Source: Minisyncoccota bacterium (lineage in GTDB: Bacteria > Patescibacteriota > Minisyncoccia > Phycocordibacterales > UBA9973). Taken from it: 64,000 nt of DNA. Positions 738 to 64,000 of the stretch are shown here, piece after piece. The translations under genes were made by a program, and so were the position numbers. Position 1 is the stretch's first letter, and each line of letters begins with the position of its first letter. The notes beneath the pieces were generated by a model, which was not told the origin of the DNA, ran no database searches, and was given only the letters and a program-made list of their open reading frames with translations. The stretch is from NCBI GenBank assembly GCA_028718635.1, contig JAQULK010000001.1:152626-216625 (forward strand), in the 5' to 3' direction.

Positions 738-1472
738 ATGAAAAACAAAATTAAAATTGCTTTAGTCGGTTTTGGGAAAATGGGAAAAGAAATTAATGCT
801 CTGTGTGAAGAGTCTGATGTTTTCGAAGTAGTTTCAATCAGTTTTAAAAATATAGATGATGCTTTGGATGTGGAGGGTATAGCTAAAGCAGATATCGCAA
901 TTGATTTTACATCAAAAGATGTAGTGATAAAAAACATAGAACAAGTCGCGAAGCTTGGAAAGAATTTAGTGATAGGCACTACTGGATGGTATGGTGACAT
1001 CGAAACAGTTAAAAAAATAGTTGATAAATATCAAATAGGTTTGATATACGGAGCAAATTTTTCAATCGGAGCTAATATTTTTTTTAAAATGGTAGCTTCC
1101 GCTTCTTCTCTTTTTGCCAAATTTCCTGAATATGATGTATATGGATTTGAAATTCATCATAAAATGAAAGCAGATAGCCCTTCTGGCACTGCTTTGAAAA
1201 TCGCTGGTAAAATTTTAGAAAATTTCCCAGCAAAAAAATCAATTCAAGTGGAAAAATTAGACAGAGAAATTGACCCGAGCGAGCTTCATTTTGCTTCAGT
1301 CCGCGGGGGCAGAAATCCCGGTTTCCATGAAGTTGTGTTTGATAGTAATGCTGACGGTATAACTCTTTCTCATCAAGCTTATGGAAGAGTTGGTTTTGCC
1401 AAAGGAGCATTGCTGGCAGCGGAGTTTATAAAGAGTAAAAAAGGATTTTATTCTTTTGAAGATATATTATAA
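738..1472 (+). CDS. dapB: 4-hydroxy-tetrahydrodipicolinate reductase
   Basis: N-terminal Rossmann motif KIALVGFGKMG and the DapB signature EIHHKMKADSPSGTA. Confidence 0.9.
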   Translation: MKNKIKIALVGFGKMGKEINALCEESDVFEVVSISFKNIDDALDVEGIAKADIAIDFTSKDVVIKNIEQVAKLGKNLVIGTTGWYGDIETVKKIVDKYQIGLIYGANFSIGANIFFKMVASASSLFAKFPEYDVYGFEIHHKMKADSPSGTALKIAGKILENFPAKKSIQVEKLDREIDPSELHFASVRGGRNPGFHEVVFDSNADGITLSHQAYGRVGFAKGALLAAEFIKSKKGFYSFEDIL

Positions 1473-10082: not shown

Positions 10083-12329
10083 ATGTTGAAAAATCAACCT
10101 GCCCGCCCTCCTAAGTCAGGAGCAGGCGGGGGAAGTATCTTTAAATTACATAAACCTTTTGAGCCAGCGGGGGATCAGCCAGTGGCTATCAGAGCGCTTG
10201 TGCAAGGTCTGTCTAAGGGAATGAAAAAGCAAACATTACTAGGAGCCACCGGCACAGGCAAGACTTTTACTATGGCAAATGTCATAGCTCAATATAACAA
10301 ACCAACTTTGGTAATAGCTCACAACAAAACCCTTGCCGCCCAGTTGGCCCAAGAATTTCGTGAATTTTTTCCAGATTCCGCAGTGCATTATTTTGTTTCT
10401 TATTATGATTATTATCAACCAGAAGCCTACATGCCTGCATCGGATACTTATATTGAAAAAGATGCCTCTATCAATAAAGAAATAGACATACTTCGCCATG
10501 CTTCCACGCAAGCGCTTTTAACAAGACGAGATGTGATTATAGTTGCCTCGGTTTCTTGTATTTATGGTTTGGGTTCTCCGGAAGAATATGAAAAAGTTAA
10601 TTTAAAACTTGAAATTGGTATGACGATGGACAGATTGACCTTAATGAAGAAATTAATTCAAATTCATTTTGAACGTACCAATGCAGATCTTACTCCTGGA
10701 ACTTTTCGTTCCATCGGTTCGCGGGTGGAATTTATGCCAGTTTCGGAAAGTATAATGTACCAAGTTGAAATGCAGGGCGGGAGAATTTCCAAAATAACAA
10801 AAGTTGATCCAGTTTCTTCTATTATAATTTCTGAAGAAAAGAATATTTTTATTTTCCCAGCAAAACATTTTATTACTGAAGATGCAAAAAAGAAAAAAGC
10901 GCTTATAGAAATTAAAAAAGAGCTAGCACAACAGCTAAAAAAATTTGAAAAAGAAGGGAAACTTTTAGAGGCTGAACGTATAAAAAGAAGAACTAATTAT
11001 GATTTGGCGATGATAAAAGAAGCTGGTTATTGCAACGGCATAGAAAATTATTCTAGGCACTTATCAGGGAAAAAAGAAGGCGAACCGCCAGAAACATTGC
11101 TTTCCTATTTCCCTAAGACTGGTTTTCTTACGATTATTGATGAATCGCATGTCACAATTCCACAACTACAAGGAATGTACGCAGGAGATGCTTCAAGAAA
11201 AAACACTTTAGTAGAATATGGATTTAGACTACCCTCCGCAAAAGATAACAGACCTTTAAAATTCAATGAGTTTGAAAATAGAATATATAATTCTATTTAT
11301 ACTTCCGCTACACCTGCAAAATTTGAGAAATCAGAAAGTAATCAAATAGTGGAACAAATTATTCGTCCGACAGGGCTTGTGGACCCAGAGACAATAGTGC
11401 GACCAGTTTCCGAAGGCGCATTTCCTCCCCTCCTTAACAAGGAGGGGAATGAGGGGAGGTTCTTAATTAATTCACCTCACCCCAACCCTCTCCTTAGTAA
11501 GGAGAGGGGGAATAACTACCCTGGCCAGATTCAAGATTTTATTCAAGAAACAGAAAAAACAATTGCAAAAGGTTTCAGGGTTCTAGCGACGACGTTGACA
11601 AAAAAAATGGCAGAGGATCTTTCTGTTTATTTAAAGGACAAAAAGATCAAAGCAGAATATCTACACAGTGATGTAAAAACGATAGACAGGATAAAAATTT
11701 TAACCCAATTCCGCAAAGGCGAATTTGATGTTTTAGTTGGCGTAAATTTACTTCGTGAAGGGTTGGATTTGCCAGAAGTTGCTCTGATTGGAATTCTAGA
11801 TGCCGACAAGGCAGGTTTTTTACGATCTGAAACATCTTTAATTCAAACGATTGGCCGTGCGGCTCGCAATAGTGAGGGTAAGGTTATTCTTTATGCCGAC
11901 ATTATGACTCCCGCGATGGATTATGCCCTAAAAGAAACTGCTCGTCGCAGAAATATTCAGCTTGCTTACAACAAAAAACATGGCATTACCCCAAAAACAA
12001 TTATGAAAAAGATAAAGGATATCACCGAAGAAATGGAAAGCGAACATGGGAAAGTTGTAAACGCCGAGCTCCAGCTTGATTTGGAAGTTTTTAAGCGCGC
12101 TTATGCGAAAGAATTTAAAAAAGAAAAGAAACAAAATCGGAAAATACCGAACACCAGCTTGGGGCAGTCTTATTTGTCTGATGAAGAGATAGGCAATTTA
12201 ATCTATGAAAAAATAATAAAAATGAAAGAAAAAGAAATGAACAAGGCAGTCAAAGAGTTAGATTTCGAGACTGCGGCGATACTAAGAGACGAGATCGGAG
12301 TTTTGCGAATGCGTACAGAAAAAAAATAG
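10083..12329 (+). CDS. uvrB: Excinuclease ABC subunit B
   Basis: GATGTGKTFTMA Walker A, helicase motifs, beta-hairpin region and a C-terminal UVR domain. Contains an in-frame insertion of about 32 aa between IVRP and GQIQDF. Confidence 0.95.
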   Translation: MLKNQPARPPKSGAGGGSIFKLHKPFEPAGDQPVAIRALVQGLSKGMKKQTLLGATGTGKTFTMANVIAQYNKPTLVIAHNKTLAAQLAQEFREFFPDSAVHYFVSYYDYYQPEAYMPASDTYIEKDASINKEIDILRHASTQALLTRRDVIIVASVSCIYGLGSPEEYEKVNLKLEIGMTMDRLTLMKKLIQIHFERTNADLTPGTFRSIGSRVEFMPVSESIMYQVEMQGGRISKITKVDPVSSIIISEEKNIFIFPAKHFITEDAKKKKALIEIKKELAQQLKKFEKEGKLLEAERIKRRTNYDLAMIKEAGYCNGIENYSRHLSGKKEGEPPETLLSYFPKTGFLTIIDESHVTIPQLQGMYAGDASRKNTLVEYGFRLPSAKDNRPLKFNEFENRIYNSIYTSATPAKFEKSESNQIVEQIIRPTGLVDPETIVRPVSEGAFPPLLNKEGNEGRFLINSPHPNPLLSKERGNNYPGQIQDFIQETEKTIAKGFRVLATTLTKKMAEDLSVYLKDKKIKAEYLHSDVKTIDRIKILTQFRKGEFDVLVGVNLLREGLDLPEVALIGILDADKAGFLRSETSLIQTIGRAARNSEGKVILYADIMTPAMDYALKETARRRNIQLAYNKKHGITPKTIMKKIKDITEEMESEHGKVVNAELQLDLEVFKRAYAKEFKKEKKQNRKIPNTSLGQSYLSDEEIGNLIYEKIIKMKEKEMNKAVKELDFETAAILRDEIGVLRMRTEKK
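11420..11515 (+). repeat. Two tandem GC-rich palindromic mini-elements (CCCCTCCTTAACAAGGAGGGG and CCTCACCCCAACCCTCTCCTTAGTAAGGAGAGGGGG) inserted in-frame in uvrB
   Basis: Perfect hairpin palindromes; they encode VSEGAFPPLLNKEGNEGRFLINSPHPNPLLSKERGNNYP, which is absent from canonical UvrB between RP and GQI. Confidence 0.8.
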
Positions 12330-12487: not shown

Positions 12488-15148
12488 ATGAAAAAAGATT
12501 TTCAAGACAAAATAATAGTAAAAGGCGCACGAACCCATAATTTAAAGAATATAAATGTGGAAATGCCTCGTAATAAAATGATAGCCATTACTGGTGTTTC
12601 TGGTTCTGGAAAATCATCTTTGGCTTTTGATACCATTTTTGCCGAAGGACAACGCCGATACGTGGAGTCTCTTTCTTCTTATGCGCGACAATTTTTAAAC
12701 CAAATGCCTAAACCTGATGTGGATGAGATCACGGGTCTTTCTCCTGCAATATCTATTGATCAAAAATCTCGTTCAAATAATCCGCGCTCGACTGTGGCGA
12801 CGATTACAGAGATCTATGATTACTTGCGAGTGATGTATGCGCGCATTGGGCATCCACATTGTCCTTTGTGTGGCGAAGAAATTAAAAAACTTTCCAATGA
12901 AGAAATTTTAAATTTTGTTTTGGAAAAGTTGAAAACACCCTCCTTGATTAAGGAGGGTGTAGGGGGTGGTAATTCCAAGAAATCACCACCTCGCCCTTCG
13001 GGCACTCCTCCTCAAAAAGGAGGAGATAAAATTCGTAAGGTTATGGGAGTCGAATGGGATGAAACAGAAATCAGTATTTTTTCACCAGTAATCAGGGGAA
13101 GAAAAGGGGAATATTATCAACTGCTTTATGATTTGCTTGGAAAAGGTTTTGCCGAAATTCGTCTTGATGGGATGATGAAAAAACTTCGCGAGCAAATAAC
13201 TCTTTCTAAAAACAAAGCACACAATATTGATATTCTAGTGGATCATTTTGCTCTACATGAGTTTACGGATGATAAGGACGGTAGTAGAATGCGTCTTTCT
13301 GAGGCTCTAGAACGTGCGCTTCTCGAGTCTGATGGTTTAGTAACTATAAAAATCGGCGATGAGGAATTTATTATGTCTGCAAAATTCGCTTGTAAGAATG
13401 ACGGTTTTTCTTTTCCAGAAGTGGAGCCGAGATTATTTTCTTTCAATTCTCCTTATGGTGCCTGTCCAGCTTGTAATGGCCTTGGTTCAAAATATTTTAT
13501 GGGAGATGAACCTTGTGAAACTTGCCATGGCGCGCGTTTACGCTCTGAAGCCTTAAATGTTTTTTTAGAGGCTTCCAAGAAGAAGGTAAACATATTAGAT
13601 CTTGCTTCTCTTTCTATAAAAGACGCATATACTTTTTTCAAAAACTTAAAACTCTCAGAACAAGAGAAGGAAATATCGGTGCCAGTCGTTCGGGAGATAG
13701 AAGCCAGACTTCAATTTATGCTGGACGTAGGTTTGGATTATTTGCAGTTGTCTCGCAAGGCGAACACTCTCTCTGGCGGAGAAGCGCAGCGTATCCGCTT
13801 GGCTTCTCAGCTTGGTTCGAGGCTCGTCGGCGCGCTTTATGTGCTCGATGAACCCACGATCGGACTTCACCAGCGAGACAACGATCGTTTGATAAAAACA
13901 CTTCAAAATTTACGTGATTTAGGCAATACAATTTTAATTGTAGAACATGATGAGGATACTATATATGCTTCGGATTATATCGTAGATATAGGACCGAAGG
14001 CCGGGGTGCACGGCGGGGAAGTGGTTGTTTCCGGTTATTTAGAAGATCTATTAACTGCAAAAAAGAACACAAATAATTCTCGAACACTTAGTTATTTGCG
14101 CGGAGAAACAAAAATAGAAATTCCTAAAAAACGGCGCCATCCTAAAGGCGCGCTTCGAATTGCCGGAGGAAATATTTTTAATATTAACAACCTTAATGTA
14201 GAAGTGCCTCTCGGAGTAATGACATCTATCACTGGTGTTTCTGGTTCCGGAAAAAGTTCTTTTATGTATGAGATTCTTTATAAAAATCTTCAAGCCCGCT
14301 TTGAGCGAAAGTATCGCACAGCCAAGATTTTTAATTGTTCCTCATTTTCTGGGACTGAATATCTATCCAGAGTTATTTTGATTGATCAATCGCCCATAGG
14401 CAGGACTCCGCGTTCAAATATTGTTACTTATACAGGAGCCTTCACGCATATCCGAGATCTTTTTGCTTCGACCGAAGAAGCGCGCTTGCGAGGATGGAAA
14501 GCAAATCGTTTTTCTTTCAATGTGAAAGGTGGTCGTTGTGAGGCCTGCGAAGGCAATGGTGAGATAGCTGTCGAAATGCATTTTTTGCCGACGGTTTATG
14601 TCACTTGCGATGTATGTGATGGAAAACGTTTTGATAAAGAGACGCTTACTGTAAAATACAAGAAAAAAAATATTTACGAAGTCCTGCATATGACTGTAGA
14701 AAATGGCCTTACTTTTTTCAAAGATATTCCGGCGATTTCCGATAGACTGCAGACCCTCTTTGATGTAGGGCTTGGTTACTTGGAACTCGGCCAATCAGCT
14801 ACAACGCTCTCTGGCGGGGAAGCGCAACGAGTAAAAATAAGTAGCGAGCTTTATCGTCCGCATTTGGAAAAAACTATTTATCTTTTAGATGAACCGACTG
14901 TGGGGCTTCATTATGATGACGTGCAGAAACTTTTGGAGGTTTTAAATAAATTGGTATCTCATGGCAATACGGTTGTCCTAATTGAACACAACCTTGATAT
15001 TGTGAAAAGTTCAGATTACATTATAGATATTGGTCCAGAAGGAGGAGTAGACGGAGGTAAAATTGTTGCCAAAGGCACGCCGGAAGAAGTGGCTGGAAAC
15101 AGCAAATCACACACTGGCAAATACTTAAGAAGAGTTTTGAGAAAATAA
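12488..15148 (+). CDS. uvrA: Excinuclease ABC subunit A
   Basis: Two ABC ATPase modules ([12 protein letters not shown] and [10 protein letters not shown]), zinc fingers, and ABC signature LSGGE twice. Start set at the ATG at 12488 ([21 protein letters not shown]) by alignment to the UvrA N-terminus. The ORF-track start at 12410 is a GTG. Confidence 0.9.
12935..13026 (+). repeat. Three small GC-rich palindromes inserted in-frame in uvrA
   Basis: CACCCTCCTTGATTAAGGAGGGTG, GGTGGTAATTCCAAGAAATCACCACC and CCTCCTCAAAAAGGAGGAG; the encoded segment [30 protein letters not shown] is absent from canonical UvrA. Confidence 0.75.
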
Positions 15149-15226
15149 AATTACATTTGTCCCGTACTAAATTTTTGATTACGGGGTATAAAGATAAGCA
15201 TTAATAATTAAAATTTTAGTACTGGG

Positions 15227-16519
15227 ATGACGAATGAAACTCTAAAAAAATTAAAACTGCCAGATAAGCCCGGTGTATATTTTTTCTTAAAAAATAAGAA
15301 AATTTTATACATCGGAAAAGCGACCTCTCTTCGAGACCGCACCAAAAGCTATTTCAGCAAGGACTTGATAAATACCCGAGGTCCGCTTGTTTTAGATATG
15401 GTTTTTAAATCGGACAATATAAAATGGGAAGCCACCGATTCTGTTTTAGAAGCTCTTATTTTAGAAGCTAATTTAATAAAAAAATATCAGCCTTATTACA
15501 ATACAAGAGAAAAAGATGATAAGAGTTTCAATTATGTCTGCATCACAAGGGAGAAATTGCCAAGAGTATTAGTAGTTAGAGGCCGAGTTTTAAAAAATTA
15601 TAAAGGAAGTATCTTTGGCCCGTATACTAGCGGTACCCAATTGCATGAGGCGTTAAAAATCTTACGCAGAATTTTTCCTTTTATTGATGACAAATCGAGT
15701 AAAAAACAAAACTATGAATTTTATAAACAGCTTGGACTGACTCCAGACGCATCATCTCCGAGTGAAATTTATTTGGATAATATAAAATATTTGAAACTTT
15801 TCTTTAAAGGCAAAAAGAAAGATATCATCCGAGATTTGAAAAAAAAGATGATGCAAAAAGCCAAAGAGGGAGAATTTGAAAAGGCCGGAGAAGTTAAAAG
15901 GCAAATTTTTGCGCTGAAACACATCAATGATATTGCGCTTATAAAAAATAGCTTCGCAGATAATAAAATTTTTGGTCCTGCGCCCTCCTTTGGGCGCATT
16001 TCTGGGAGCAAAGCGGGACCCTCGGACACAAAAATTTTATTATCTGCTTTGCTATTTCGCATTGAGGCTTATGACATAGCGCACATGGGAGGCAAAAATA
16101 TGGTTGGGGTGATGACAGTTTTGGAAAACGACGAAGCAGTAAAGAGTGAGTACAGAAAATTCAAAATTAAGACTCAGAATAATGTAAATGATACCGGCGC
16201 ACTCGCGGAAGTTTTAGAAAGAAGGTTGATGCATAAAGAATGGGCATTTCCAGATTTAATTGTGGTGGATGGCGGTATGGCGCAAATTAATGCCGCCAAA
16301 AGTGTTTTAAAAAAAATGGGTTTAAACATACCCGTAGTTTCTGTTGTTAAAGATGAACACCATAAACCGAAAGCCATAATGGGGGACAATCCACGCCACG
16401 GCAGGGCAAGAGATTTTGGATTAAAATATAAAAGAGAAATTCTACTAGCGAACAGCGAAGCACACCGATTTGCCATCAGTTATCATAAAAATATGAGGAA
16501 TAAGAATTTCTTGATTTAG
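15227..16519 (+). CDS. uvrC: Excinuclease ABC subunit C (short form, about 430 aa, lacking C-terminal HhH region)
   Basis: N-terminal GIY-YIG domain (PGVYFFLKNKKILYIGKATSLRDR) and a C-terminal RNase H-like endonuclease domain (VVDGGMAQINAA...). Confidence 0.85.
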   Translation: MTNETLKKLKLPDKPGVYFFLKNKKILYIGKATSLRDRTKSYFSKDLINTRGPLVLDMVFKSDNIKWEATDSVLEALILEANLIKKYQPYYNTREKDDKSFNYVCITREKLPRVLVVRGRVLKNYKGSIFGPYTSGTQLHEALKILRRIFPFIDDKSSKKQNYEFYKQLGLTPDASSPSEIYLDNIKYLKLFFKGKKKDIIRDLKKKMMQKAKEGEFEKAGEVKRQIFALKHINDIALIKNSFADNKIFGPAPSFGRISGSKAGPSDTKILLSALLFRIEAYDIAHMGGKNMVGVMTVLENDEAVKSEYRKFKIKTQNNVNDTGALAEVLERRLMHKEWAFPDLIVVDGGMAQINAAKSVLKKMGLNIPVVSVVKDEHHKPKAIMGDNPRHGRARDFGLKYKREILLANSEAHRFAISYHKNMRNKNFLI

Positions 16520-16544: not shown

Positions 16545-18293
16545 ATGAATTCCGAAACGCGGGTCTGCCAAAATTGCAAAAAAGATTTCACGATAGAACC
16601 AGAAGATTTTTCTTTTTATGAGAAACTAAAAGTGCCAGCGCCCACTTGGTGTCCGGACTGCAGATTTGTACGCAAACTCACTTTTATTAATGAACGATCT
16701 TTATATAAAGAAACTTGCGGTAATTGCAAAAAATCAATAATTTCAATGTATAGTCCAGAGAGCGGTATTTCTTCTTGGTGTATCAAATGCCACTTGAGCG
16801 ATGTCTGGGATGCGCGCGATTATGGCAGGGAATATGATTTTTCGAAGACATTTTTTGAGCAGTTTAAAGAATTAAAATACAATATTCCTCACAGAGCGCT
16901 TGATCAAAATGAACGCAACGGAGAAGGCTGTGAATATTCAAATTTATGCTTTGCGAACAAAGATGTCTATTTATCTTTTAATATTGTGGGTTCTGAGCAT
17001 ATAAAATATTCTAATAATGTTTTAAAACGAAATAAAAATTGTTTGGATTCTATGATTATTAAAGCCAACGATAGAGGATACGAGCTGGTACAAGCCAGCA
17101 ACAATTACAACTCGACTTTTTTAATAGAAAGTGATCAGTGTGTGGATTCACATTTCCTTTATGATTGTTCAAATTGCGTAAAATGTTGTTTATCATGTAA
17201 TCTTCGCAATAAAAGTAATGTTTTTAAAAATCAACAATTATCTAAAGAGAAATATGAAGAAGCAGTTACAAATTTGAAATTAGAAACATATTCAGGACAA
17301 ATAAAGGCTAAGGATATTTTTAGGGATTTAGCAAAAAATGCTATTCATAAACATGCGCACATTAAAAATTCAGTAAATGTAGTTGGGGATTTTGTGGAAA
17401 ATTCAAAAAATGTTTATCACTGCTATTGTGTGGCTGATGCGGAAAATGTTAAATATGTTTTTTTTAGTGCCAATGCTATGAAAGATAGCCAAGATGTTGT
17501 GTCATGTGGAAAGATTGAAGAATGTTATGAATTTACTTTAGGAGGAAGAGGTTCCAATCGAGTAGTTTTATGTCTTAGTTGTGGAGGAGGGAATAATAAT
17601 TTGTTTTATTGTGATAATGTTAGAAGTAGTTCTAATTGCTTTGGTTGTGTGAATTTAATTAAGAAACAATATTGTATATTTAATAAGCAATATTCAAAAG
17701 AAGAATATTTCGAATTGTTGTCGAAAATTATGAAACATATGAATGAGATGCCGTATGTGGATGCGCTTGGAAGGGAATATGTTTTTGGTGAATTTTTTCC
17801 TACAGAGATTTCTCCTTTTGCTTATAATGAAACTCGAGCATTTGAAGAATGTCCACTTTCAAAAGAAGAAGTGCTTGCTTTTGGTTATAAATGGAAGGAA
17901 ATAGAAGCCAAAGCCTATGTTCCAACAATAAAAGGAGATGCTATTCCTGATAGCATTAAAGATGTTGAGGATACAATTTGCGACGAAGTTATCGAGTGTC
18001 CCAATAAAGGTAAAGTAGAGACGCGATGCACTTCAGCCTATAAAATATTACCGGATGAGCTTTCTTTTTATCGACAAATGAATCTGCCGATACCTAGATA
18101 TTGTCCGAATTGTAGATACCACCAGCGTTTAGCTTGGAAAAATCCTTTTCATTTTTATAAACGAGAGTGTATGTGTGAATTGCAGAATCATCAACACAAA
18201 GGAAAGTGTCTAAATAAATTTGAAACTATGTATGCTTCTGATCGACCAGAGATAATTTATTGCAAAGAATGTTATCAGGCAGAAATATATTAG
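16545..18293 (+). CDS. Cys-rich protein of unknown function (paralogue 1 of a two-member family in this window)
   Basis: 582 aa. N-terminal CQNCKKDFTIEPEDFSFYEKLKVPAPTWCPDCR and C-terminal MNLPIPRYCPNCR zinc-ribbon-like modules, plus internal C.GC.NL...YCI.NKQYSKEEY repeats. Full-length homology to the ORF at 51882..53585. Confidence 0.7.
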   Translation: MNSETRVCQNCKKDFTIEPEDFSFYEKLKVPAPTWCPDCRFVRKLTFINERSLYKETCGNCKKSIISMYSPESGISSWCIKCHLSDVWDARDYGREYDFSKTFFEQFKELKYNIPHRALDQNERNGEGCEYSNLCFANKDVYLSFNIVGSEHIKYSNNVLKRNKNCLDSMIIKANDRGYELVQASNNYNSTFLIESDQCVDSHFLYDCSNCVKCCLSCNLRNKSNVFKNQQLSKEKYEEAVTNLKLETYSGQIKAKDIFRDLAKNAIHKHAHIKNSVNVVGDFVENSKNVYHCYCVADAENVKYVFFSANAMKDSQDVVSCGKIEECYEFTLGGRGSNRVVLCLSCGGGNNNLFYCDNVRSSSNCFGCVNLIKKQYCIFNKQYSKEEYFELLSKIMKHMNEMPYVDALGREYVFGEFFPTEISPFAYNETRAFEECPLSKEEVLAFGYKWKEIEAKAYVPTIKGDAIPDSIKDVEDTICDEVIECPNKGKVETRCTSAYKILPDELSFYRQMNLPIPRYCPNCRYHQRLAWKNPFHFYKRECMCELQNHQHKGKCLNKFETMYASDRPEIIYCKECYQAEIY

Positions 18294-18818: not shown

Positions 18819-18857
18819 AATCAAAATTTTTGCCGGTACGGATTTTTTGAAGCTTAA

Positions 18858-18925
18858 AAAATCCTGAAGTTGGCTCGCCGTCGCTCGCCAAACCCCTTAA
18901 AAACTTTATTCTCTAATTTTAGAAT
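18858..18925 (+). repeat. Intergenic repeat family R1 (CGGTACGGATTTTTTGAAGCTTAAAAAATCCTGAAGTT...GGCTCGCC...AAACCCCT), copy 1; copy 2 at 41197..41265
   Basis: 38-bp identical core containing a perfect 9-bp-stem hairpin GGATTTTTT-GAAGCTT-AAAAAATCC, with similar flanks; both copies lie immediately 3' of genes. Confidence 0.7.
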
Positions 18926-23237: not shown

Positions 23238-23951
23238 CTAATTTGTCAAGCTTAATGAGTTTAGGAAAATAGCCAATTCTTCTCCCTTTATTTCTCTTAA
23301 AGTATTTGGTTTTAAGTTGTTCAATTTGATATTCATAATTCTTTCACGTTTTAAGTCGGCTACTTCTTGAAAAAGATTCGAGCACATCCGGCGGATTTGG
23401 TGTTTTTTCCCTTCAGTCAAAATTACTTTAAAAGTATTTTCACTCATTGTTTTTACTTTGCATGGTTTGGTGACATAGCCTTCAATATTTACTCCTGCTT
23501 CCATTTTTTGTTTGAAGTTGGAGCGGAGTTTTTCTTTGGTGCGGACGATGTATTCTTTTTCGTGAAAATATTTTGGGTTTAGGAGCTGGTCAGTGATGCG
23601 CCCGTCATTTGTTAGGATCATTAGTCCGTGGCTAGCCTTATCTAGTCTTCCTAAAGGAAACAAGCCTTCTTTGGGAGAACTGGTTTCTGTGCCTTTTGGC
23701 TTATAGTATGCATAATATTTATATGCCGTTGGTTTTGCGCCCTTCACTTCCACTATGTCATTTTCATTTACCTGACTGCCTAGGACCGCTAATTTTTTAT
23801 TGATATATACTTTTTTTTCTTTTATTAAAAGATCCGCTCCTCGTCTGGTAGAGATTTTTTTTAAAGCTAGGTATTTATTTATCCGTACACCAACTTTGGT
23901 ATTGCTTTTTTTGTTCTGCTCTGAATTTATTGACTGATTATTATTTTTCAT
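23238..23951 (-). CDS. rsuA: rRNA pseudouridine synthase (RsuA/RluB family)
   Basis: S4 RNA-binding domain followed by a GRLDKASHGLMILTNDG catalytic motif. Confidence 0.8.
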   Translation of the reverse strand: MKNNNQSINSEQNKKSNTKVGVRINKYLALKKISTRRGADLLIKEKKVYINKKLAVLGSQVNENDIVEVKGAKPTAYKYYAYYKPKGTETSSPKEGLFPLGRLDKASHGLMILTNDGRITDQLLNPKYFHEKEYIVRTKEKLRSNFKQKMEAGVNIEGYVTKPCKVKTMSENTFKVILTEGKKHQIRRMCSNLFQEVADLKRERIMNIKLNNLKPNTLREIKGEELAIFLNSLSLTN

Positions 23952-24088
23952 AAAATGATATATTTAGTAATTAAAAATATTGAAAAAGCAGAACAATACC
24001 AAAGTTGGTGTTGGGATTTATCCGCATGGCTGTCAGTATAGCATATTATGCATTTGCAGATAATGAGTTATTGAGATAAAGTGGTTGT

Positions 24089-32849: not shown

Positions 32850-33344
32850 CTAAAACCCCAAGGCCTCCATTATTTTTTCTGAAGCATGTTCTTTCATTTC
32901 CACTTCTGGAATATTTTTTGAAAGCATTATGGAGTGAATATCTTCTGCTATTGCTTCAGCTATTGGGATAGAGAGAATAGGCATAAAAGCTCTTTCTGAA
33001 TGAATGAAAAGGATTGGTTTAATACCTGCTTCAGGATGTTCTCCTAATTGAACCCAAAAGGATTTTATATTTTCAAAAGGATAAAGGCGGTTTCTAATGA
33101 TCAAGCCCTTTTGATTTAATTCATAGGTGATCGTATCTGGTTTTTTAATGGCAAAAAATCCGAGCAGGATTCCAGCAAGAATAATTAAAGCTGCAAAAAA
33201 ATAATTTTCAAAAATAATAGAAGCGATGGAGCTTGTCACCACAATGATGCCGAGCGCCCAAAACCAATCCGAGGTTCGATCTTTCTCTTCGTATTCCAAG
33301 GCAGACCAAACTAATTTTTCATCTGATCTTTCGATTATTTCCAT
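32850..33344 (-). CDS. Hypothetical membrane protein (2 TM)
   Basis: ORF with two hydrophobic helices. Its ATG is provided by the end of a MITE-like repeat. Confidence 0.5.
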   Translation of the reverse strand: MEIIERSDEKLVWSALEYEEKDRTSDWFWALGIIVVTSSIASIIFENYFFAALIILAGILLGFFAIKKPDTITYELNQKGLIIRNRLYPFENIKSFWVQLGEHPEAGIKPILFIHSERAFMPILSIPIAEAIAEDIHSIMLSKNIPEVEMKEHASEKIMEALGF

Positions 33345-33466
33345 CCCGTTAGAAGCAGATCGCGATCAACTCGCGTATCTGATATATTAGGTTATTAATT
33401 TTCTCAATACTTGGTTTCATGTTTTTGTTTGTTTTAAAATTGCGATCGCGGCTTCTAACGGGATCC
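33342..33466 (-). mobile_element. MITE-like ~125-bp element, copy A, with ~22-bp terminal inverted repeats (ATCCCGTTAGAAGC.GATCGCGATC)
   Basis: About 85% identical over its full length to the reverse complement of 59112..59236; termini CATCCCGTTAGAAGC...GCTTCTAACGGGATCC. Confidence 0.7.
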
Positions 33467-35735: not shown

Positions 35736-37007
35736 ATGAGTTTTTTCCTGACAATTAAAATGACCGTGCGCAGTTTGCTCAGTAGAAAAGGAAGATCTTT
35801 TCTTACTATGCTTGGCATTGTGATCGGAGTGGCGGGGGTGATCATCATCATCTCTCTCGGCGCGGGAGCGCAATCATTAGTGCTTGGCCAAATCAATAAG
35901 CTCGGTTCCAATCTGCTCTCTATCCAACCGGGGAAAAGCGATCCCAAAGGACCGCCAGCGCAAGTTTTTGGCGTTGTCGTTACCACTTTAGTTGAATCTG
36001 ACGCCGAAGCTCTGCGTTCTCCTTCCCAAGTTCCGCATGCGATAGCTATCAATGCTATGGTCCGCGGAGCTGGCACGGTAACTTGGCAAAATAGAAGTAC
36101 GGATACGAGTTTTTTGGGTACAGATTATGGATATGATAAGGTGGTTAATTTTTCAATGAGTTCCGGAGAATTTATTAGTGAGACGGCAAACAAAGCAGGA
36201 ACAAAAGTGGTAGTGCTGGGTTCTAAAGTTGCCGATGCTTTATTTGGAGGTACGGGAGTAGATCCTATTGACCAAGTCATTAAAATTAGAAGTACTTCTC
36301 AGGCGGATGCCGGCGGAGTACCCTTGCGCATAGTTGGAGTTGTCGAAAAAAGAGGCAGTGCTTTTTTTCAAGATCAAGATGATCAGATATTTATCCCGCT
36401 TTCCGTGGCGCAGAGTGAGCTTCTTGGGATTCATTACTTACAAGCGATAAATGTAAAAGTAGATTCGGCAGACAATATCGATCAGACGATAAGCGATATA
36501 ACTTATACTTTAAAACAAAGACATCACATATTGTCAGATGATAATATTGATTTTACTATCAGGGACCAGGCGGCGGCTGCCGATATTTTAAAAACCATTA
36601 CCAGCGCATTGTCTTTATTCCTTACTTCTATGGCGGCTGTTGCTTTGGTCGTGGGTGGTATTGGAATTTTAAACATAATGCTTGCCACAGTGGCGGAGAG
36701 AACTCGCGAGATAGGGTTGCGCAAAGCAGTGGGTGCCACAAACTCAATGGTCATGAGGCAATTTTTACTTGAAGCGGGAACGTTGACTTTGATCGGCGGA
36801 GTGATCGGCATTATTGTCGGCGTTTTAGTGTCTTACCTGATGGCGCTTTTAATGAAGTATTTGGGTTTTGATTGGGATTTTGTTATTTCGATTACATCTG
36901 TTCTCTTGGCTGTCGGAGTGTCTGTTTTGACTGGAGTTATTTTCGGTTTATATCCATCATTAAAAGCTTCGAGATTAAATCCAATAGATGCATTAAGATA
37001 TGAATAA
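35736..37007 (+). CDS. ABC transporter permease (MacB-like periplasmic domain plus FtsX domain)
   Basis: N-terminal TM, large periplasmic domain, C-terminal FtsX-type four-helix region ending PIDALRYE. Confidence 0.85.
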   Translation: MSFFLTIKMTVRSLLSRKGRSFLTMLGIVIGVAGVIIIISLGAGAQSLVLGQINKLGSNLLSIQPGKSDPKGPPAQVFGVVVTTLVESDAEALRSPSQVPHAIAINAMVRGAGTVTWQNRSTDTSFLGTDYGYDKVVNFSMSSGEFISETANKAGTKVVVLGSKVADALFGGTGVDPIDQVIKIRSTSQADAGGVPLRIVGVVEKRGSAFFQDQDDQIFIPLSVAQSELLGIHYLQAINVKVDSADNIDQTISDITYTLKQRHHILSDDNIDFTIRDQAAAADILKTITSALSLFLTSMAAVALVVGGIGILNIMLATVAERTREIGLRKAVGATNSMVMRQFLLEAGTLTLIGGVIGIIVGVLVSYLMALLMKYLGFDWDFVISITSVLLAVGVSVLTGVIFGLYPSLKASRLNPIDALRYE

Positions 37008-37122
37008 TCCCGAACGAAATCGCGGACGCATAAAGTAAACAAAATTATGAAATTGATAAAATATATTATAAATAATAAAAAGGACAAACAAGCGTAAGCG
37101 TACGCGTCCTATTTCGTACGGG

Positions 37123-38367
37123 ATGAATAAAGCATTAAGACAATCTATTAAAGCGCTACGAGCCAATAAAGGAAGAACTTTTTTGACGATGCTTGGAATT
37201 ATTATTGGCATTGGAACGGTTGTTTTGGTGCTTTCTGCCGGGGCAGGCTTTCGTTCGTTGATTGATTCCCAAGTCGCAGTGTATGGAAGCAACACTTTGT
37301 TTGTCCAAACCCACATTCCTTCTGCCACAAAACAAAGAAGCGATGCAACGGATGGTCCCGGAGGCGCAATCGTCGGAGTTGTTATTACTAGTTTTAAGCA
37401 AAGAGACTTAGATACTATTAATAAATTGCACAATGTGGCTGGAAGTTATGGTTTTATCACCGGACAAGCCGTTGCGCAATATAGAGACAATAAAAAAAGT
37501 TCTATCTATTATGGAGTCGGGGCGGACAGATTTAATTTTGATAAAACAAAACTTTCTTCCGGAAGATTTTTTTCTAAAGTAGAAGATGCGAGCGGAGCGC
37601 AAGTAGCGATCCTCGGGGCTACCGTCGCCGAAGATCTTTTTGGACAAGATGATCCAATCGGAAAATCTTTTAAACTCGGCGGTTTAAATTTTCAGGCGAT
37701 CGGAGTCTATGCTCCGCAAGGAGCGCTCTCTGAGAGCGATGGTATAGTTTTTATTCCGCTTAATACAGCGCAGAAAAAATTACTTGGTGTAAATTATATC
37801 ACTATCGCAGTGGTGGCTTTGAACGATATGAATGAAGCGGATGCTACCGCCGAGCAAATAAAAATTGCGCTTAGAAACAATCACAATATTACTGATCCAG
37901 CCAAAGATGATTTCATTGTTCAGACACAAGCGCAAGCCTTGGAAACTTTCAACGTTATTTTCGATGGCATAACTTATCTGCTTATCGCTATCGCCGCTAT
38001 CTCTCTTTTGGTGGGAGGCGTTGGTATTATGAACATTATGTACGTCGTGGTCACAGAACGAACAGCAGAAATCGGGCTCAAGAAAGCTCTTGGCGCGCGC
38101 GAGTCGGATATTTTAAAAGAGTTTCTAGTAGAAGCGGTGCTGGTCACTATTGCGGGAGGTCTGATAGGGATAGGCCTCGGATCATTTTTGGGTTTTATTA
38201 TTTCTCTCATTGCCAAAGGAGCAAACCTCGCTTGGACATTTTCCGTGCCGGTCTATGCCATTGTGCTTGCGTTTAGCGTCTCGGCAATAATCGGAATATC
38301 CTTCGGGGTTTTTCCAGCCAAATCAGCCGCCCAAATGGATCCCGTGGAGGCCATGCGATATGAATAA
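37123..38367 (+). CDS. ABC transporter permease (MacB/FtsX family, second copy)
   Basis: Same architecture as the preceding permease; ends PVEAMRYE. Confidence 0.85.
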   Translation: MNKALRQSIKALRANKGRTFLTMLGIIIGIGTVVLVLSAGAGFRSLIDSQVAVYGSNTLFVQTHIPSATKQRSDATDGPGGAIVGVVITSFKQRDLDTINKLHNVAGSYGFITGQAVAQYRDNKKSSIYYGVGADRFNFDKTKLSSGRFFSKVEDASGAQVAILGATVAEDLFGQDDPIGKSFKLGGLNFQAIGVYAPQGALSESDGIVFIPLNTAQKKLLGVNYITIAVVALNDMNEADATAEQIKIALRNNHNITDPAKDDFIVQTQAQALETFNVIFDGITYLLIAIAAISLLVGGVGIMNIMYVVVTERTAEIGLKKALGARESDILKEFLVEAVLVTIAGGLIGIGLGSFLGFIISLIAKGANLAWTFSVPVYAIVLAFSVSAIIGISFGVFPAKSAAQMDPVEAMRYE

Positions 38368-40720: not shown

Positions 40721-41179
40721 ATGAATACAGGGAGATTTTTGGGAATTGATTTTGGGACAAAAAGGATAGGAGTGGCTATTTCAGACGAAAATCACACCTT
40801 GGCTTTTCCAAAAGAAATCGTTTTGAATAACCCAAATACTTTTAAAAAGCTCGGCGAGATAATAAAAAAAGAAAAAGTGGCAGAAATCGTGGTCGGAGAA
40901 TCTGTGGATTTTTCAGGGAAATTAAATGCTTTATCCGGTAGGATTGAAGTTTTTATTTTGGAATTGAAAGAGCATTTCAAATTGCCGGTGCATAAGCAAA
41001 AAGAATTCTTAACTTCAGTGGAGGCTCGCCGATATGAAGATCTTGGCGGGCAAGCTAGAAAATCTAATGCTCATAGCAGATTGAAGCAAATAAAGTCTGG
41101 CCGAATAGATGCCTCCGCGGCGGCTCTCATCTTACAGCGATATTTAGATAAAATAAATATCGTAAATCATGAAACATAA
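40721..41179 (+). CDS. ruvX: Putative pre-16S rRNA nuclease / Holliday junction resolvase-like protein YqgF (RuvX)
   Basis: FLGIDFGTKRIGVAISDE N-terminal RNase H-like motif. Start set at the ATG at 40721 rather than the ORF-track start at 40598. Confidence 0.8.
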   Translation: MNTGRFLGIDFGTKRIGVAISDENHTLAFPKEIVLNNPNTFKKLGEIIKKEKVAEIVVGESVDFSGKLNALSGRIEVFILELKEHFKLPVHKQKEFLTSVEARRYEDLGGQARKSNAHSRLKQIKSGRIDASAAALILQRYLDKINIVNHET

Positions 41180-41302
41180 ACTTTTCTTCGGTACGGATTT
41201 TTTGAAGCTTAAAAAATCCTGAAGTTCTCGGCTCGCCAGCCTCGAAACCCCTGCGAAAAGTTATGTTTCGTGATTTAGAGACAAATAGGTTATAATATTT
41301 GT

Positions 41303-51797: not shown

Positions 51798-51881
51798 ATC
51801 TAAGAAATACTTTCTCACCCCAACCCCTCTCCATAAATTGATTTATGGAGAGGGGAAAGCAAGGGGAGAGGTGAATTAATT

Positions 51882-53585
51882 ATGAATCAAGAAACTAAAT
51901 CCTGCCAAAATTGCCAAAAAGATTTCACGATAGAGCCAGAAGATTTTAATTTCTATGGAAAGATAAAAGTTCCATCGCCCTCTTGGTGTCCAGAATGCCG
52001 AATAGTACGTAGATTTGCTATTCACAATACTTGGAGTTTGTTTTGGCGAAATTGTGAAAAGTGTGGGATTAAAACTCTATCAACTTTTGAACCGGAAACA
52101 AAAATCACAACTTACTGCCAACCTTGCTGGTGGGGAGATTCTTGGGATGGCACAGAGTATGCTATGGACTACGATCCATCGCGTCCGTTTTTGGAACAAT
52201 TAAAAGAGTTGAGTAACAAAACGCCGTATGCTGCGCTTGAAACAGCTTATTTAACATTAAAAAATTCTGATTATTCAAATGATATTGCCTGGAGTAAAGA
52301 TTGTTATTTAGTTTTCTGGGCTGATTATTGTGATACAGTTTTTTACTCTTCTTTATTAAATGGTTTGAAATATAGTGCAGATTGTATTAGGGGATATGAA
52401 TCAGAATTATGTTATGAGTCTATAGGTTTTACGAAAAATTATAGAACTTTTTTTTCCGATGAATGTGATACCTGTGTGGATGTATGGTTTTCGCGTAATT
52501 GTTACGGTTGCACCAATTGCATCGGATGTGTGAACCTTCGTGGAGCTTCTAATTATATTTTTAATGTAAAATATTCTAAAGAAGAATATGCGGAAAAATT
52601 AAAAGAACTCAGTCTAGATTCTTGGAGTAAATTACGCGAGCTTGAAAAAAGAGCGCATGAATTTTGGCTGACTTTACCATATAGAGAATATGATGGCCAT
52701 TCTTTAAATTTAAATGTAACAGGAGAACATGTGTATACATCTAAAAATTCTAAAGAGGTATATGTTGTAAATGGTGCAGAAAATTGTAAATGGACTCAGT
52801 TTATAACAGTTCCTACTGCAAAAGATTGCATGGACTACTCTGGCTGGGGTAACAATTCTTCTCTTATTTATGAATCTGCCACTGTAGGAGAGAACGCGAA
52901 TTCAATTTATTTTTGTTATGGCTGTTGGCCGGATTCTCTTAATCTTCAATATTGTTCTTGGAATATATCCGGCAAAAATAATTTTGGCTGTTTTAATCTA
53001 AAGAGAAAGCAATATTGCATCCTAAATAAACAATATTCCAAAGAAGAATACGAGAAACTGAAAAATGAAATTATCGCAGATATGAAAATAAATCCGTATA
53101 TAGATAAACTGGGACGCAAATATTATTATGGAGAATTTTTTCCATCCGAGTTAAGTAAATTTTCTTATAATAAATCAAATGCCATACGTTTTTTCCCAAA
53201 GACAAAAGAGCAAGCGACCCGTGAAGGGTTTAACTGGAGTGATAGAGAAAATATCGTATATAATATTTCTAAACCAGCAAATTCTTTACCGGAAAAAATT
53301 GCGAATACAGGAGAAGATATCTTAAACGAAGTTATTGAATGTGAAAATTGTGGGAATGGATATAGGGTAGTTCAGGGTGAATATGATTTATTGCGTAAAA
53401 TGAATTTACCTATCCCGCATGAATGTCCCAAATGCCGTGAAATTAAACGATTTGCCAGAATGAATAAACCAAAGTTGCATCACCGAAATTGTATGAAATG
53501 CGGTGTAAATATTTATACCCCTTATTCTCCCGAAAGTCCTAATATTGTGTATTGCGTGAAGTGTTATCAGCAAGAATTTGCTTAA
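51882..53585 (+). CDS. Cys-rich protein of unknown function (paralogue 2)
   Basis: 567 aa. N-terminus CQNCQKDFTIEPEDFNFYGKIKVPSPSWCPECR, C-terminus MNLPIPHECPKCR, internal C.GC.NL...YCILNKQYSKEEYEKL repeats. Collinear homology to 16545..18293. Confidence 0.7.
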   Translation: MNQETKSCQNCQKDFTIEPEDFNFYGKIKVPSPSWCPECRIVRRFAIHNTWSLFWRNCEKCGIKTLSTFEPETKITTYCQPCWWGDSWDGTEYAMDYDPSRPFLEQLKELSNKTPYAALETAYLTLKNSDYSNDIAWSKDCYLVFWADYCDTVFYSSLLNGLKYSADCIRGYESELCYESIGFTKNYRTFFSDECDTCVDVWFSRNCYGCTNCIGCVNLRGASNYIFNVKYSKEEYAEKLKELSLDSWSKLRELEKRAHEFWLTLPYREYDGHSLNLNVTGEHVYTSKNSKEVYVVNGAENCKWTQFITVPTAKDCMDYSGWGNNSSLIYESATVGENANSIYFCYGCWPDSLNLQYCSWNISGKNNFGCFNLKRKQYCILNKQYSKEEYEKLKNEIIADMKINPYIDKLGRKYYYGEFFPSELSKFSYNKSNAIRFFPKTKEQATREGFNWSDRENIVYNISKPANSLPEKIANTGEDILNEVIECENCGNGYRVVQGEYDLLRKMNLPIPHECPKCREIKRFARMNKPKLHHRNCMKCGVNIYTPYSPESPNIVYCVKCYQQEFA

Positions 53586-53684
53586 AGAGGTTGTTTATGT
53601 TAGATTAAATCGACTACTTGTCCCGTTAGAAAATCAGCGGACTGGTAAGAAGTAGTAAGTTTATTATTTAAATTTTTTAATGGG

Positions 53685-54095
53685 ATGGCAGGAAATAAAA
53701 TCAATAAAATAAAATTCACTCCGGTAGATATCGAAGAGCGAAAGAAGCTTAATTTCAAGGCTGGAGATACTGTTTCTGTTTCGTCAAAGATTATAGATGA
53801 AAAAGGCAAGTCTCGTTTTCAAGTTTTTGAGGGTATCGTGCTTGCTAGAAAACATGGCACTGAAGCGGGTGCTACTTTTACCGTCAGAAAGGTTTCTTCT
53901 GGTGTTGGAGTAGAAAGAATTTTTCCGTTATATTCTCCAATGATAGGGGAAATCAAAATAACTAAAAGGTCTCGCGCTCGCAGGTCAAAACTTTACTATA
54001 TCCGTACCAAGGCAGTCAAAGATGTTCGCAAAAAAATGCGTTCCATCGCTCATTCAGAGGAAGCAAACGATGCAGTAGAAAAAGTTGCAGAATAA
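53685..54095 (+). CDS. rplS: 50S ribosomal protein L19
   Basis: Typical L19 core (FKAGDTVSV...RFQVFEGIV...) with a basic C-terminal extension. Confidence 0.9.
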   Translation: MAGNKINKIKFTPVDIEERKKLNFKAGDTVSVSSKIIDEKGKSRFQVFEGIVLARKHGTEAGATFTVRKVSSGVGVERIFPLYSPMIGEIKITKRSRARRSKLYYIRTKAVKDVRKKMRSIAHSEEANDAVEKVAE

Positions 54096-54327: not shown

Positions 54328-54849
54328 ATGCCAATAGTTAAATGCAAATTATGTTCAAAAGAATTTTATGGTAAACCATTTTTTCTAAAGAATGGTTGGG
54401 CTAAGTATTGTTCTACCGCATGTCAGTACAAAGCTAGACGAAGTGGAAAATTTTTACCCTGCGAGATTTGTGGAGAAAAGACCTATAAACAGTTAAAAAG
54501 ACTAAAAAAATCTAAAAGTGGTAAATTCTTTTGTAGCAAGTCTTGCCAAACAGTGTGGAGAAATCAAGAATTCATAGGAATTAAACATCATAATTGGAAA
54601 ACTGGGTTATCTGCTTACAGAAGCGTATTGGCGAGAAATAAGATTCCTAAATTTTGCAATTTATGTAGAACAAAAGATGAAAGAGTTCTTTCTACCCATC
54701 ATATTGATAAGAATAGAAACAATAATCATGTATCAAATCTTGCATGGCTTTGTAACAATTGTCATTTTTTAGTTCACCATTATAAAGATGAATCCTTGAA
54801 ATTTAAAAAAAATCTGTCAGTATATAGAATACGAGGTAAATCCTCATAA
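54328..54849 (+). CDS. HNH endonuclease with N-terminal zinc-ribbon repeats (paralogue of 39763..40275)
   Basis: CRTKDERVLSTHHIDKNRNNNHVSNLAWLCNNCH HNH motif; flanked by tRNA-Leu (105 nt upstream) and tRNA-His (4 nt downstream). Confidence 0.8.
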   Translation: MPIVKCKLCSKEFYGKPFFLKNGWAKYCSTACQYKARRSGKFLPCEICGEKTYKQLKRLKKSKSGKFFCSKSCQTVWRNQEFIGIKHHNWKTGLSAYRSVLARNKIPKFCNLCRTKDERVLSTHHIDKNRNNNHVSNLAWLCNNCHFLVHHYKDESLKFKKNLSVYRIRGKSS

Positions 54850-59111: not shown

Positions 59112-59236
59112 GGATCCCGTTAGAAGCCGCGATCGCAATTTAAAAACAAACAAAATATGAAATCAAATATTTGGGAAATTAATAATATAAAACATAAGAT
59201 ACGTGAGTTGATCGCGATCTGCTTCTAACGGGATGG
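59112..59236 (+). mobile_element. MITE-like ~125-bp element, copy B
   Basis: GGATCCCGTTAGAAGCCGCGATCGC...GATCGCGATCTGCTTCTAACGGGATGG; its 3' terminus supplies the murB ATG. Confidence 0.7.
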
Positions 59237-63372: not shown

Positions 63373-63441
63373 AAAGACCTCACCCCAGCCCTCTCCTTGT
63401 TAAGGAGAGGGGGGTTCATTTGACTATTTGAGCAAAAAGAG

Positions 63442-63699: not shown

Positions 63700-63773
63700 G
63701 AACACTTGTCCCGTAGTAAATTCAGCAAATGGGACATAGTCGATAAATATTATTAATTAAAATTTTACTACTG

Positions 63774-64000
63774 GGATGGCTAAACAAGAAACGCTAGGAA
63801 CAAGAAATTGGTACGCAATACATACTTATGCCGGATACGAGAACGTTGTTCTTCGTAATTTGAAACAGCGCATAGACTCTCTCGGGATGAATGATAAAAT
63901 TTTTAACGTGATTGTCCCAGTTGAAAAGAAAATAAAAATCAAAGCCGGCAAGCGAGTAGAAGTGGAAGAAAAAATTTATCCCGGATATGTGTTGGTGGAT
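63774..64000 (+). CDS. nusG: Transcription termination/antitermination factor NusG (5' partial; continues beyond window)
   Basis: MAKQETLGTRNWYAIHTYAGYENVV... NGN domain N-terminus. Confidence 0.8.

Follow-up and report, generated by a model that had tools for sequence, protein, structure and literature searches.

A palindromic leader element that directly abuts start codons and pairs with the AUG in Paceibacteria

Introduction

In the 64,000-nt stretch of a Minisyncoccota bacterium genome analyzed here (contig JAQULK010000001.1, positions 152,626 to 216,625 of the forward strand; hereafter the window), the genes uvrC, rplS and nusG are each preceded by a copy of the same module of about 70 nt, whose last base immediately precedes the ATG. 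A 72-nt leader that lacks a Shine-Dalgarno (SD) site and buries the AUG in a hairpin should block translation unless it is neutralized, and the question raised by this locus is how genes carrying such a leader may be expressed. The module is a member of a large family of 69-75-nt palindromic elements found in Paceibacteria/Nomurabacteria, tiny groundwater bacteria of the Candidate Phyla Radiation (CPR). As a tentative answer, and the one that we favor, we propose that the hairpin may be excised by a double-strand RNase to give a leaderless mRNA, and that the element may be a mobile insertion, retained solely at sites where taking it out of the transcript restores a 5′-AUG.

Distribution and context of the module

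All three copies lie on the + strand. Copy 1 (72 nt, subtype a, 15155..15226) is directly 5′ of the uvrC ATG (15227) and follows the uvrA stop codon (15146-15148) after a 6-nt spacer, aattac. Copy 2 (69 nt, subtype b, 53616..53684) lies between the rplS promoter and the rplS ATG (53685), and copy 3 (72 nt, subtype c, 63704..63775) is directly 5′ of the nusG ATG (63776), with the secE stop codon (63697-63699) and a 4-nt spacer, gaac, on its upstream side. According to Pfam, the flanking gene pairs are uvrA and uvrC, a zinc-finger protein and rplS, and secE and nusG. The sequence-only reading that had drawn attention to these leaders gave their sequences correctly and their positions to within 1-3 nt, and the TTGTCCCGT, A/T-rich box and GGGATG that it described as shared are present in all three copies. 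A profile built from the copies recovered them with nhmmer E-values of 2e-24, 9e-21 and 5e-19, the next-best match in the window having a value of 0.18, and they were the sole matches of an unfiltered covariance model with which the window was scanned. A weak covariance-model match at 54448-54529 was rejected, as it lies within a coding region and is unlike the module. The 22-nt box at the 3′ end occurs twice in the window, against 0.01 occurrences expected by chance.

Across the family, the unit runs from A-C-Y-UGUCCCGU to ...(C/A)UGGG, immediately 5′ of the start codon. Scanning metagenome contigs for the exact pattern gave at least 120 loci and at least 128 copies beyond the window's three; the pattern matches number at least 131 when other loci and the window are included, and one of them (L145) is a chance match. 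The further copies to which the sequence-only reading had looked for a check are present in large numbers. Also supported is its proposal that the module is conserved rather than a product of chance, that its nucleic-acid structure is under selection and that it acts as a leader on the sense strand. The metagenome pattern required GGGATG, so adjacency to ATG could not be tested with that set and a covariance model (R1) was run instead on 1.19 Mb of sequence chosen by the rplS protein alone. It detected 10 short-type copies, namely the three in the window and those in L012, L013, L017, L025, L036, L044 and L072, and all 10 are directly before an ATG. A hairpin scan with TCCCG...GGG as its sole requirement turned up no member of the family that was not at a start codon.

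Among the matches listed, the downstream genes number about 80 and are varied, mostly housekeeping and in several cases essential, with products such as L19, L4, S9, DnaB, GyrA, SecY, FtsW, ClpP, PGK, DHFR and MreB. Because of this, insertion of the module cannot abolish expression. The 79 non-redundant downstream proteins carry 94 Pfam families of unrelated function, which excludes a ligand-specific riboswitch.

On the upstream side, two contexts were observed. One is marked by a -10-like hexamer that peaks sharply 6 nt ahead of the module's first A; 25-32 of 123 copies have it there, where the background at any one offset is about 3-10, and from this spacing we infer that the module's first base would be the transcription start. 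The other is the post-stop-codon (operon) kind, to which the uvrC and nusG copies belong: for 43 of 125 copies, the end of a co-directional open reading frame (ORF) with 60 or more codons precedes the module by 0-12 nt, the commonest distance being 4 nt. Whichever the context, the module takes up the entire interval as far as the AUG, and its orientation relative to the gene is always fixed.

The start codon lies within a selected RNA stem

In the folded RNA, the 5′ end of the module (UGUCCCGU...) pairs over a long range with its 3′ end (...GGGAUG), so that the start codon is inside the helix. In the minimum-free-energy fold of copy 1, the 5′ arm, UGUCCCGUACUAAA (15158..15171, +), pairs with 15215-15222 and 15224-15229 of the 3′ arm (15215..15229, +), which consists of UUUAGUAC, a bulged U at 15223, GGG and AUG and includes the uvrC start codon (15227-15229). 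Copy 2 has a 16-bp stem formed by UGUCCCGUUAGAAAAU (53619..53634, +) and AUUUUUUAAUGGGAUG (53672..53687, +), the latter including the rplS start codon. In the predicted fold of copy 3, UGUCCCGUAGUAAA (63707..63720, +) faces a 3′ arm made up of UUUACUAC, a bulged U, GGG and AUG (63764..63778, +), with the nusG start codon in it. The predicted fold energies of copies 1, 2 and 3 are -21.9, -14.4 and -19.5 kcal/mol (z = -4.2, -1.4 and -2.8). Stem length in the family is 14-16 bp, with up to 9 bp more in subtype a. The base of the stem holds the AUG through U.G, G.U and U-A pairs and is clamped by CCC/GGG. Every fold, and each of the 103 arm sets, has the AUG paired with UGU; since neither triplet varies, covariation is uninformative for these three pairs.

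It had been proposed that a small hairpin within the module is kept by compensatory changes. Compensatory change is real, but it is found in the end-to-end stem that encloses the AUG, where GUACUAAA/UUUAGUAC of the uvrC copy is replaced by GUAGUAAA/UUUACUAC in the nusG copy; relative to copy 1, the G at 63716 of copy 3 is compensated by a C at 63768. The small local hairpin is only a predicted alternative fold, and because its 5′ arm is invariant it carries no compensatory evidence.

The same stem is maintained in the wider family. Counting outward from the invariant anchors, we found stem positions 0-7 to be at least 96% paired in 122 distinct copies, with the pair types at individual positions distributed as GC 72/GU 50, as AU 68/UA 52, as CG 59/AU 46/UA 6/GC 5, or as UA 68/GU 24/GC 16/AU 12; parts of both arms are fixed by the search pattern and the copies share descent, so that such cell counts overstate the number of independent events. 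The covariation score of the 55 bulge-type arm sets is 0.109, compared with 0.034 after shuffling (0 of 500 shuffles reached the observed value) and 0.011-0.049 in controls with a slid partner. In subtype b, with 48 bulge-free arm sets, 98.7% of cells are paired and one pair varies between G.U, G-C and A-U. Wobbles are almost confined to the sense strand, with about 74 G.U pairs versus about one mismatch of the A.C type, and the covariance model scores 94 bits on the sense strand versus 30 bits on the reverse. Furthermore, where copies precede the same gene in diverged genomes (the rplS, S14 and L28 sets), the stems are kept while the loops drift. The stem is selected, and it is selected at the RNA level.

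The outcome depended on how the arms were aligned. When RNAalifold was applied to a plain MAFFT alignment of 122 copies, just six invariant base pairs were recovered; MAFFT had put the single-base bulge by which subtypes a and b differ in the wrong place, and the remedy was the anchor-based counting described above together with separate alignment of the arms. Pairing of the Y of ACY with the base that follows the AUG was rejected, since 34 of 55 are unpaired there.

Exact insertion in a lineage that appears poor in SD sites

The genes of the window offer a view of how this host starts translation. A -10-like box ends 5-9 nt before the ATG in 20 of 53 ATG-start genes, while 4.1 ± 1.9 would be expected at random, and SD-like cores number 4 against a background of 4.1. 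This suggests a lineage in which most genes are started from leaderless mRNAs or in cistrons that overlap or follow one another closely. Separately, we observed that a tRNA-His gene (54854-54925) ends 4 nt before the ATG (54930) of an MFS transporter gene, and processing of the tRNA could release a nearly leaderless mRNA for the transporter.

Relatives found through the protein L19, which are metagenome-assembled genomes of Candidatus Nomurabacteria/Paceibacterota, made it possible to compare loci with and without the module. At rplS, the relatives L002 and L003 have ...ttagattaaatccact joined directly to ATGGCAGG and lack the module, as does L004, whereas the window has ...ttagattaaatcgact, then the 69 nt of the module, then ATGGCAGG. 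In at least 30 relatives, the rplS ATG comes about 9 nt after a promoter of the type TTGCC-N17-TAAAGT. The putative rplS promoter in the window (53578..53606, +) has the same layout, with TTGCTT, 17 nt, TAGATT and 9 nt to the module; in the relatives this layout ends at the ATG itself. L012 and L013 have the module at the same rplS position, while closer relatives are without it. At secE-nusG, the spacer is 3-30 nt long in 22 relatives and none of the 22 has the module. The uvrA and uvrC genes of relatives overlap by 11 nt or are 1-6 nt apart, and the uvrA-uvrC junction reads TAAaattat followed directly by ATG in L201 versus TAAaattac, the 72 nt of the module and ATG in the window. At none of the three sites do close relatives have the module; their rplS ATG stands directly at a leaderless-type promoter, and uvrA-uvrC and secE-nusG are 0-30 nt apart or overlap. 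By this comparison, each window copy is an exact insertion just 5′ of the ATG that replaces nothing. No duplicated flank of the short type was seen in the with/without comparisons at rplS, nusG or uvrC.

Possible fates of the leader

Since the element persists before housekeeping genes and its stems are kept across diverged genomes, it must be neutralized at the RNA level. In the reading that we favor, a double-strand-specific RNase would cut the transcribed hairpin at the conserved base of the stem, after which the mRNA would begin at or next to the AUG and would be translated like the host's other leaderless mRNAs. Excision would work for promoter-adjacent copies and for copies inside operons alike, and if insertions survive only where excision recreates a 5′-AUG, the start codon right behind every copy would be accounted for. 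RNase III is a candidate nuclease because CPR bacteria retain it: their genomes keep rnc, RNase J and PNPase (PMC12641178). Transcripts of Correia elements are cleaved by RNase III at their inverted repeats (PMC10969869, PMC2649163). The stem, at 14-16 bp with up to 9 additional pairs in subtype a, has the length of about 1.5-2 double-stranded turns that characterizes RNase III substrates.

Several observations weigh against excision. For RNase III, the 16-bp stem of subtype b is on the short side. Two of the three pairs that hold the AUG are wobbles, so that it may simply breathe open, and the insertion mechanism alone could explain the exact abutment to ATG. That UGUCCCGU and GGGAUG do not vary among the metagenome copies is in part a product of the search pattern, and the copy in L025, which was recovered without that bias, has AGG where others have GGG. 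No RNase III gene was found with tblastn, using an E. coli query, in the window and about 2 Mb of fragments, a sample too small for this purpose. Finally, the module contains an enriched G-run competitor for the 5′ arm, described next, and this looks more like a stem-opening switch than an RNase substrate.

The main rival to excision is accordingly a stem that is opened rather than cut, which we consider a possible but less probable account. Here the stem would hide the AUG, and translation would start once the 5′ arm is held elsewhere, either by an internal G-run hairpin, which would form first during transcription, or by a ribosome completing the upstream gene; opening would leave about 35 nt of unstructured, A/U-rich leader for SD-independent initiation, and the closed form would also shield the 5′ end from RNase J. 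The small hairpin of the sequence-only reading is one such competitor: in copy 1, the internal G-run UACGGGG (15180..15186, +) can pair with the 5′ arm, and the RNA is predicted to refold onto it when the 3′ arm is removed. In copy 3, UGGGACA (63730..63736, +) is able to pair with UGUCCCG of the 5′ arm, and without the 3′ arm the predicted fold has -11.1 kcal/mol, versus -5.5 ± 2.7 with shuffled interiors. With the 3′ arm removed, pairing of the 5′ arm with the G-run is predicted in 67 of 122 copies versus 13% with shuffled interiors, the mean energy being -8.2 kcal/mol for this alternative 5′ hairpin and -18.0 for the full fold. The competitor occurs in different registers in the subtypes (UACGGGGCA in a, ACGGGC or GCGGAC in b, AUGGGA in b′, UGGGACA in c), which favors a role for it. 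The conserved A/U-rich tract in the 3′ half of the loop, the holding of the AUG by no more than U.G, G.U and U-A, and the many copies that start about 4 nt after an upstream stop codon are likewise in keeping with opening. On the other hand, the 19 copies of subtype a′ and some others lack any G-run competitor, which is therefore not essential, and by an estimated footprint a ribosome at the stop codon, with a 4-nt spacer and ACY before it, would reach the stem without opening it. Opening does not by itself explain why the spacing to ATG is zero in every copy, and it needs efficient internal SD-less initiation in an organism that seems to rely on leaderless or coupled translation.

Sister elements and mobility

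The module is accompanied by larger palindromic elements. The core TCCCGTTAGAA had been noted to resemble the terminal repeat of a miniature inverted-repeat transposable element (MITE); this was right, and the core forms both ends of the larger elements. Members of this long type are 115-119 nt in the window, have TCCCG(T/A)...CGGG ends and always finish at an ATG. They are flanked by a 5-8-nt direct repeat that starts with that ATG (ATGGA, ATGAA, ATGCAA or ATGAATAA), and the upstream repeat copy is 6-9 nt after a -10 box. One, with TCCCGTTAGAA.../...TTCTAACGGG ends (59115..59232, +), ends at the ATG of a murB-like gene and has ATGGA on both sides. A second (33345..33463, -) ends at the ATG of the ORF 32850..33344 and is flanked by ATGGA repeats. 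A variant with TCCCGAACGAAAT.../...ATTTCGTACGGG (37008..37122, +) lies between two MacB/FtsX paralogues and is flanked by ATGAATAA repeats (37000-37007 and 37123-37130), which correspond to the would-be stop/start overlap of the paralogues. A further variant, at 742-858 (-) of L075, has CCCCGTTAGAAAAT.../...ATTTTCTAACGGGG ends followed by TGAAC and may abut a GTG start codon.

Short-type units also occur in tandem before an fpg-like gene (L097, 531-594 and 596-668; L148, minus strand, approximately 1430-1565). In these, the GGG of the first unit is directly followed by the ACT of the second, which delimits the unit as ACY...GGG. The tandem copies and the larger sister element with its ATG-starting direct repeats point to mobility. 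Compared with the usual features of MITEs, the module has terminal inverted repeats (14-16 paired positions), but as DNA the match is imperfect and strand-biased (G:T only). It is present in many short, dispersed, non-coding copies whose presence differs between relatives. A target-site duplication is lacking in the short type, while the long type has the 5-8-nt direct repeats.

These features could be read as those of a purely selfish miniature transposon, whose arms would be terminal inverted repeats bound by a transposase and whose RNA hairpin would be a tolerated by-product; the link to start codons would then follow from choice of ATG as target together with purging of other insertions in a compact genome. 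The exact boundaries of the presence/absence differences, the tandem copies, two copies in L102 that stand 0.9 kb apart before different genes and differ by 1 nt, the resemblance of the long type's direct repeats to target duplications and the TCCCG...CGGG termini common to all types, short and long, agree with this. We nevertheless find it unlikely. Covariation between arms with wobbles on the sense strand is expected of RNA pairing rather than of protein-bound DNA ends, and same-gene copies at rplS, S14 and L28 keep their stems while their loops drift. In addition, the short type has no target duplication, and a search of 1.9 Mb of fragments for an autonomous partner, in the form of an insertion sequence between matching ends 0.2-4 kb from each other, found none.

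A quite improbable alternative is that the closed hairpin is bypassed. It would loop out 70 nt and bring the AUG beside the 5′ end or the upstream stop codon, where a 70S ribosome loaded at the 5′ end, or one that has just terminated, would re-engage the AUG without scanning, SD site or cleavage. Such a hand-over would fit with the retention of the original spacer 5′ of the module while the ATG abuts it 3′, with the strong CCC/GGG clamp at the base of the helix, with the copy of the gene's first 5 nt (AUGNN) that the long type keeps at its 5′ end, and with the tolerance of tandem units. However, the short type has no 5′ AUG, and a helix directly upstream of the P-site codon should, judging from ribosome structure, clash with the ribosome. 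We know of no such mechanism in bacterial initiation. If it did operate, it would be a bacterial counterpart of ribosome shunting, and a mobile element could go unnoticed in the space that separates an expression signal from a start codon.

Identities that were set aside

At the DNA level, an operator or cruciform that controls the adjacent promoter by regulator binding or extrusion is very improbable: the inverted-repeat architecture and the conserved TCCCG/CGGGA half-sites next to promoters in some copies would suit it, but the half-sites are 55-60 bp apart, a third of the copies are inside operons without a promoter, the wobble pairs are strand-asymmetric and the orientation relative to the gene is always fixed. 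The terminator-promoter cassette suggested earlier, in which a hairpin would terminate the upstream transcript and the A/T-rich box would restart transcription, is already largely refuted and we give it hardly any credence, for although the intergenic position of the module, its hairpin and the A/T-richness of its 3′ half would suit it, no window copy has a G+C-rich stem with a U-run or a sigma-70-like hexamer pair, no terminator-like or promoter-like site is found on the + strand inside any window copy, neither hairpin is followed by a U-run, the hexamer at the clade's -10 position relative to the ATG is TTTAGT or TTTTTT and lacks the key A in second place, covariation links the 3′ box to the 5′ arm, and many copies come directly after a promoter.

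Searches against known families were likewise negative. In Rfam, only the tRNAs of the window pass gathering scores and the module has no match, including to the L19 leader; sub-threshold hits in scans by E-value, none of which came close to its gathering score, were mostly generic microRNA-precursor hairpins for the uvrC copy and one weak Lnt for the rplS copy. The Correia 26-bp inverted repeat has no match with up to 3 mismatches, and the flanks of the module are not TA repeats. A leader peptide or upstream ORF was considered for the 39-codon frame of a long-type copy, which runs from a 5′ ATG to a TAA 4 nt before the gene; it was rejected, as the frame stops after 16 codons in a sister copy and after 3 in subtype b. 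Further candidates were compared by eye and rejected: integron attC sites (core order reversed), REP/RAYT (no conserved GTAG), guided insertion of the IS200/IS605 type (a 3-nt CAT target is too unspecific), and hammerhead, twister and pistol ribozymes (cores absent, no Rfam match).

Relation to known elements and significance

The module is of a known kind in that it is a transcribed palindromic repeat or leader hairpin. Correia elements, a MITE of Neisseria, are similarly short non-coding palindromes that occur in many copies, often upstream of genes, and are co-transcribed with them (PMC2649163, PMC10969869). Strains differ in which copies they carry, much as relatives do for the module. RNase III binds the RNA hairpin of Correia elements and cuts it at the inverted repeats. 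Unlike the module, they have a TA target duplication, an IHF site and promoters at their ends, they are not tied to start codons and their hosts use SD sites; the module, for its part, has no sequence relation to them, lacks a duplication in the short type, has a fixed orientation and zero spacing to the ATG, and contains the AUG in its stem. REP/BIME, ERIC, RUP and BOX are also dispersed, transcribed extragenic hairpins and can stabilize or destabilize segments of operon mRNA (PMC2229807). In contrast to the module, they are found mostly at 3′ ends or anywhere in spacers. To our knowledge, none of them has been reported to fill exactly the interval from a transcription start or stop codon to the AUG.

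Other precedents concern what may happen to the RNA. The intervening sequences in the rRNA of Salmonella, Leptospira and other bacteria are sporadic hairpin insertions that are tolerated through excision by RNase III without re-ligation; they sit in helices of 23S and 16S rRNA, whereas the module is in mRNA leaders, where excision is our proposal. In mitochondria, tRNA punctuation has structured RNA between cistrons cut out to leave leaderless mRNAs, the difference being that the structured unit of the present family is a simple hairpin rather than a tRNA. RNA thermometers, the leader of the MS2 maturation gene and hok mRNA resemble the module in having a start region paired upstream, an early competing hairpin and weak G.U pairs, but they are gene-specific, hide an SD site and are immobile, whereas a single cassette without an SD site stands before about 80 unrelated genes here.

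What appears to be new is the exact fit between an expression signal and a start codon with the AUG in the stem, in an SD-poor, leaderless-rich host, and the reuse of one cassette before so many genes of unrelated function. Literature searches returned nothing relevant on leaderless translation or MITEs in CPR/Patescibacteria, nor on an element of this kind. As far as we know, translation start is almost unstudied in the CPR/Patescibacteria, which represent a large share of bacterial diversity. That an SD-poor lineage nevertheless tolerates a 72-nt structured SD-less leader before rplS, dnaB, gyrA and secY would, whether by excision, switching or hand-over, show something of gene expression inside the operons of such organisms, and on any of the readings it would show how a mobile element can be seated at a gene's most sensitive point and yet not kill the gene. 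With its natural with/without alleles, the 72-nt cassette could be a portable test object for leaderless initiation and RNA processing. The elements also constitute a new RNA family that can be added to annotation pipelines for CPR genomes.

Other repeats and neighboring genes in the window

Two paralogous genes of 567-582 aa with a C-terminal treble-clef zinc finger (16545-18293 and 51882-53585) adjoin two of the modules. The first of them lies between uvrC and a SpoU methylase gene, and it is a lineage-specific insertion given that these two genes are directly adjacent in L201-L204.

Repeats that differ from the module are also present. Arms of a 36-nt inverted repeat (23881-23916 and 23982-24017, ATCCCAAC.../...GTACGGAT, minus strand) enclose the annotated start of the ORF 23238..23951(-); this may be a related element, or the start of the ORF may have been mis-called. 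An 87-nt intergenic repeat occurs at 18823-18909 and 41178-41264 with 76% identity and a GGTACGGATTTTTTGAAGCTTAAAAAATCCTGAAGTT core, each copy within its own inverted repeat. An exact 37-nt G-rich repeat, GGATGGGGTAGTGGGGGAGAAGACGAAGGGGAGGATG, is located at the 3′ ends of two otherwise different ORFs (48097-48133 and 61904-61940). G+C-rich hairpins of the form CCCTCTCC...GGAGAGGG are located between genes at 11474-11510, at approximately 51850-51880 and at 63377-63413, and the hairpin at 63389-63411 scores as terminator-like.

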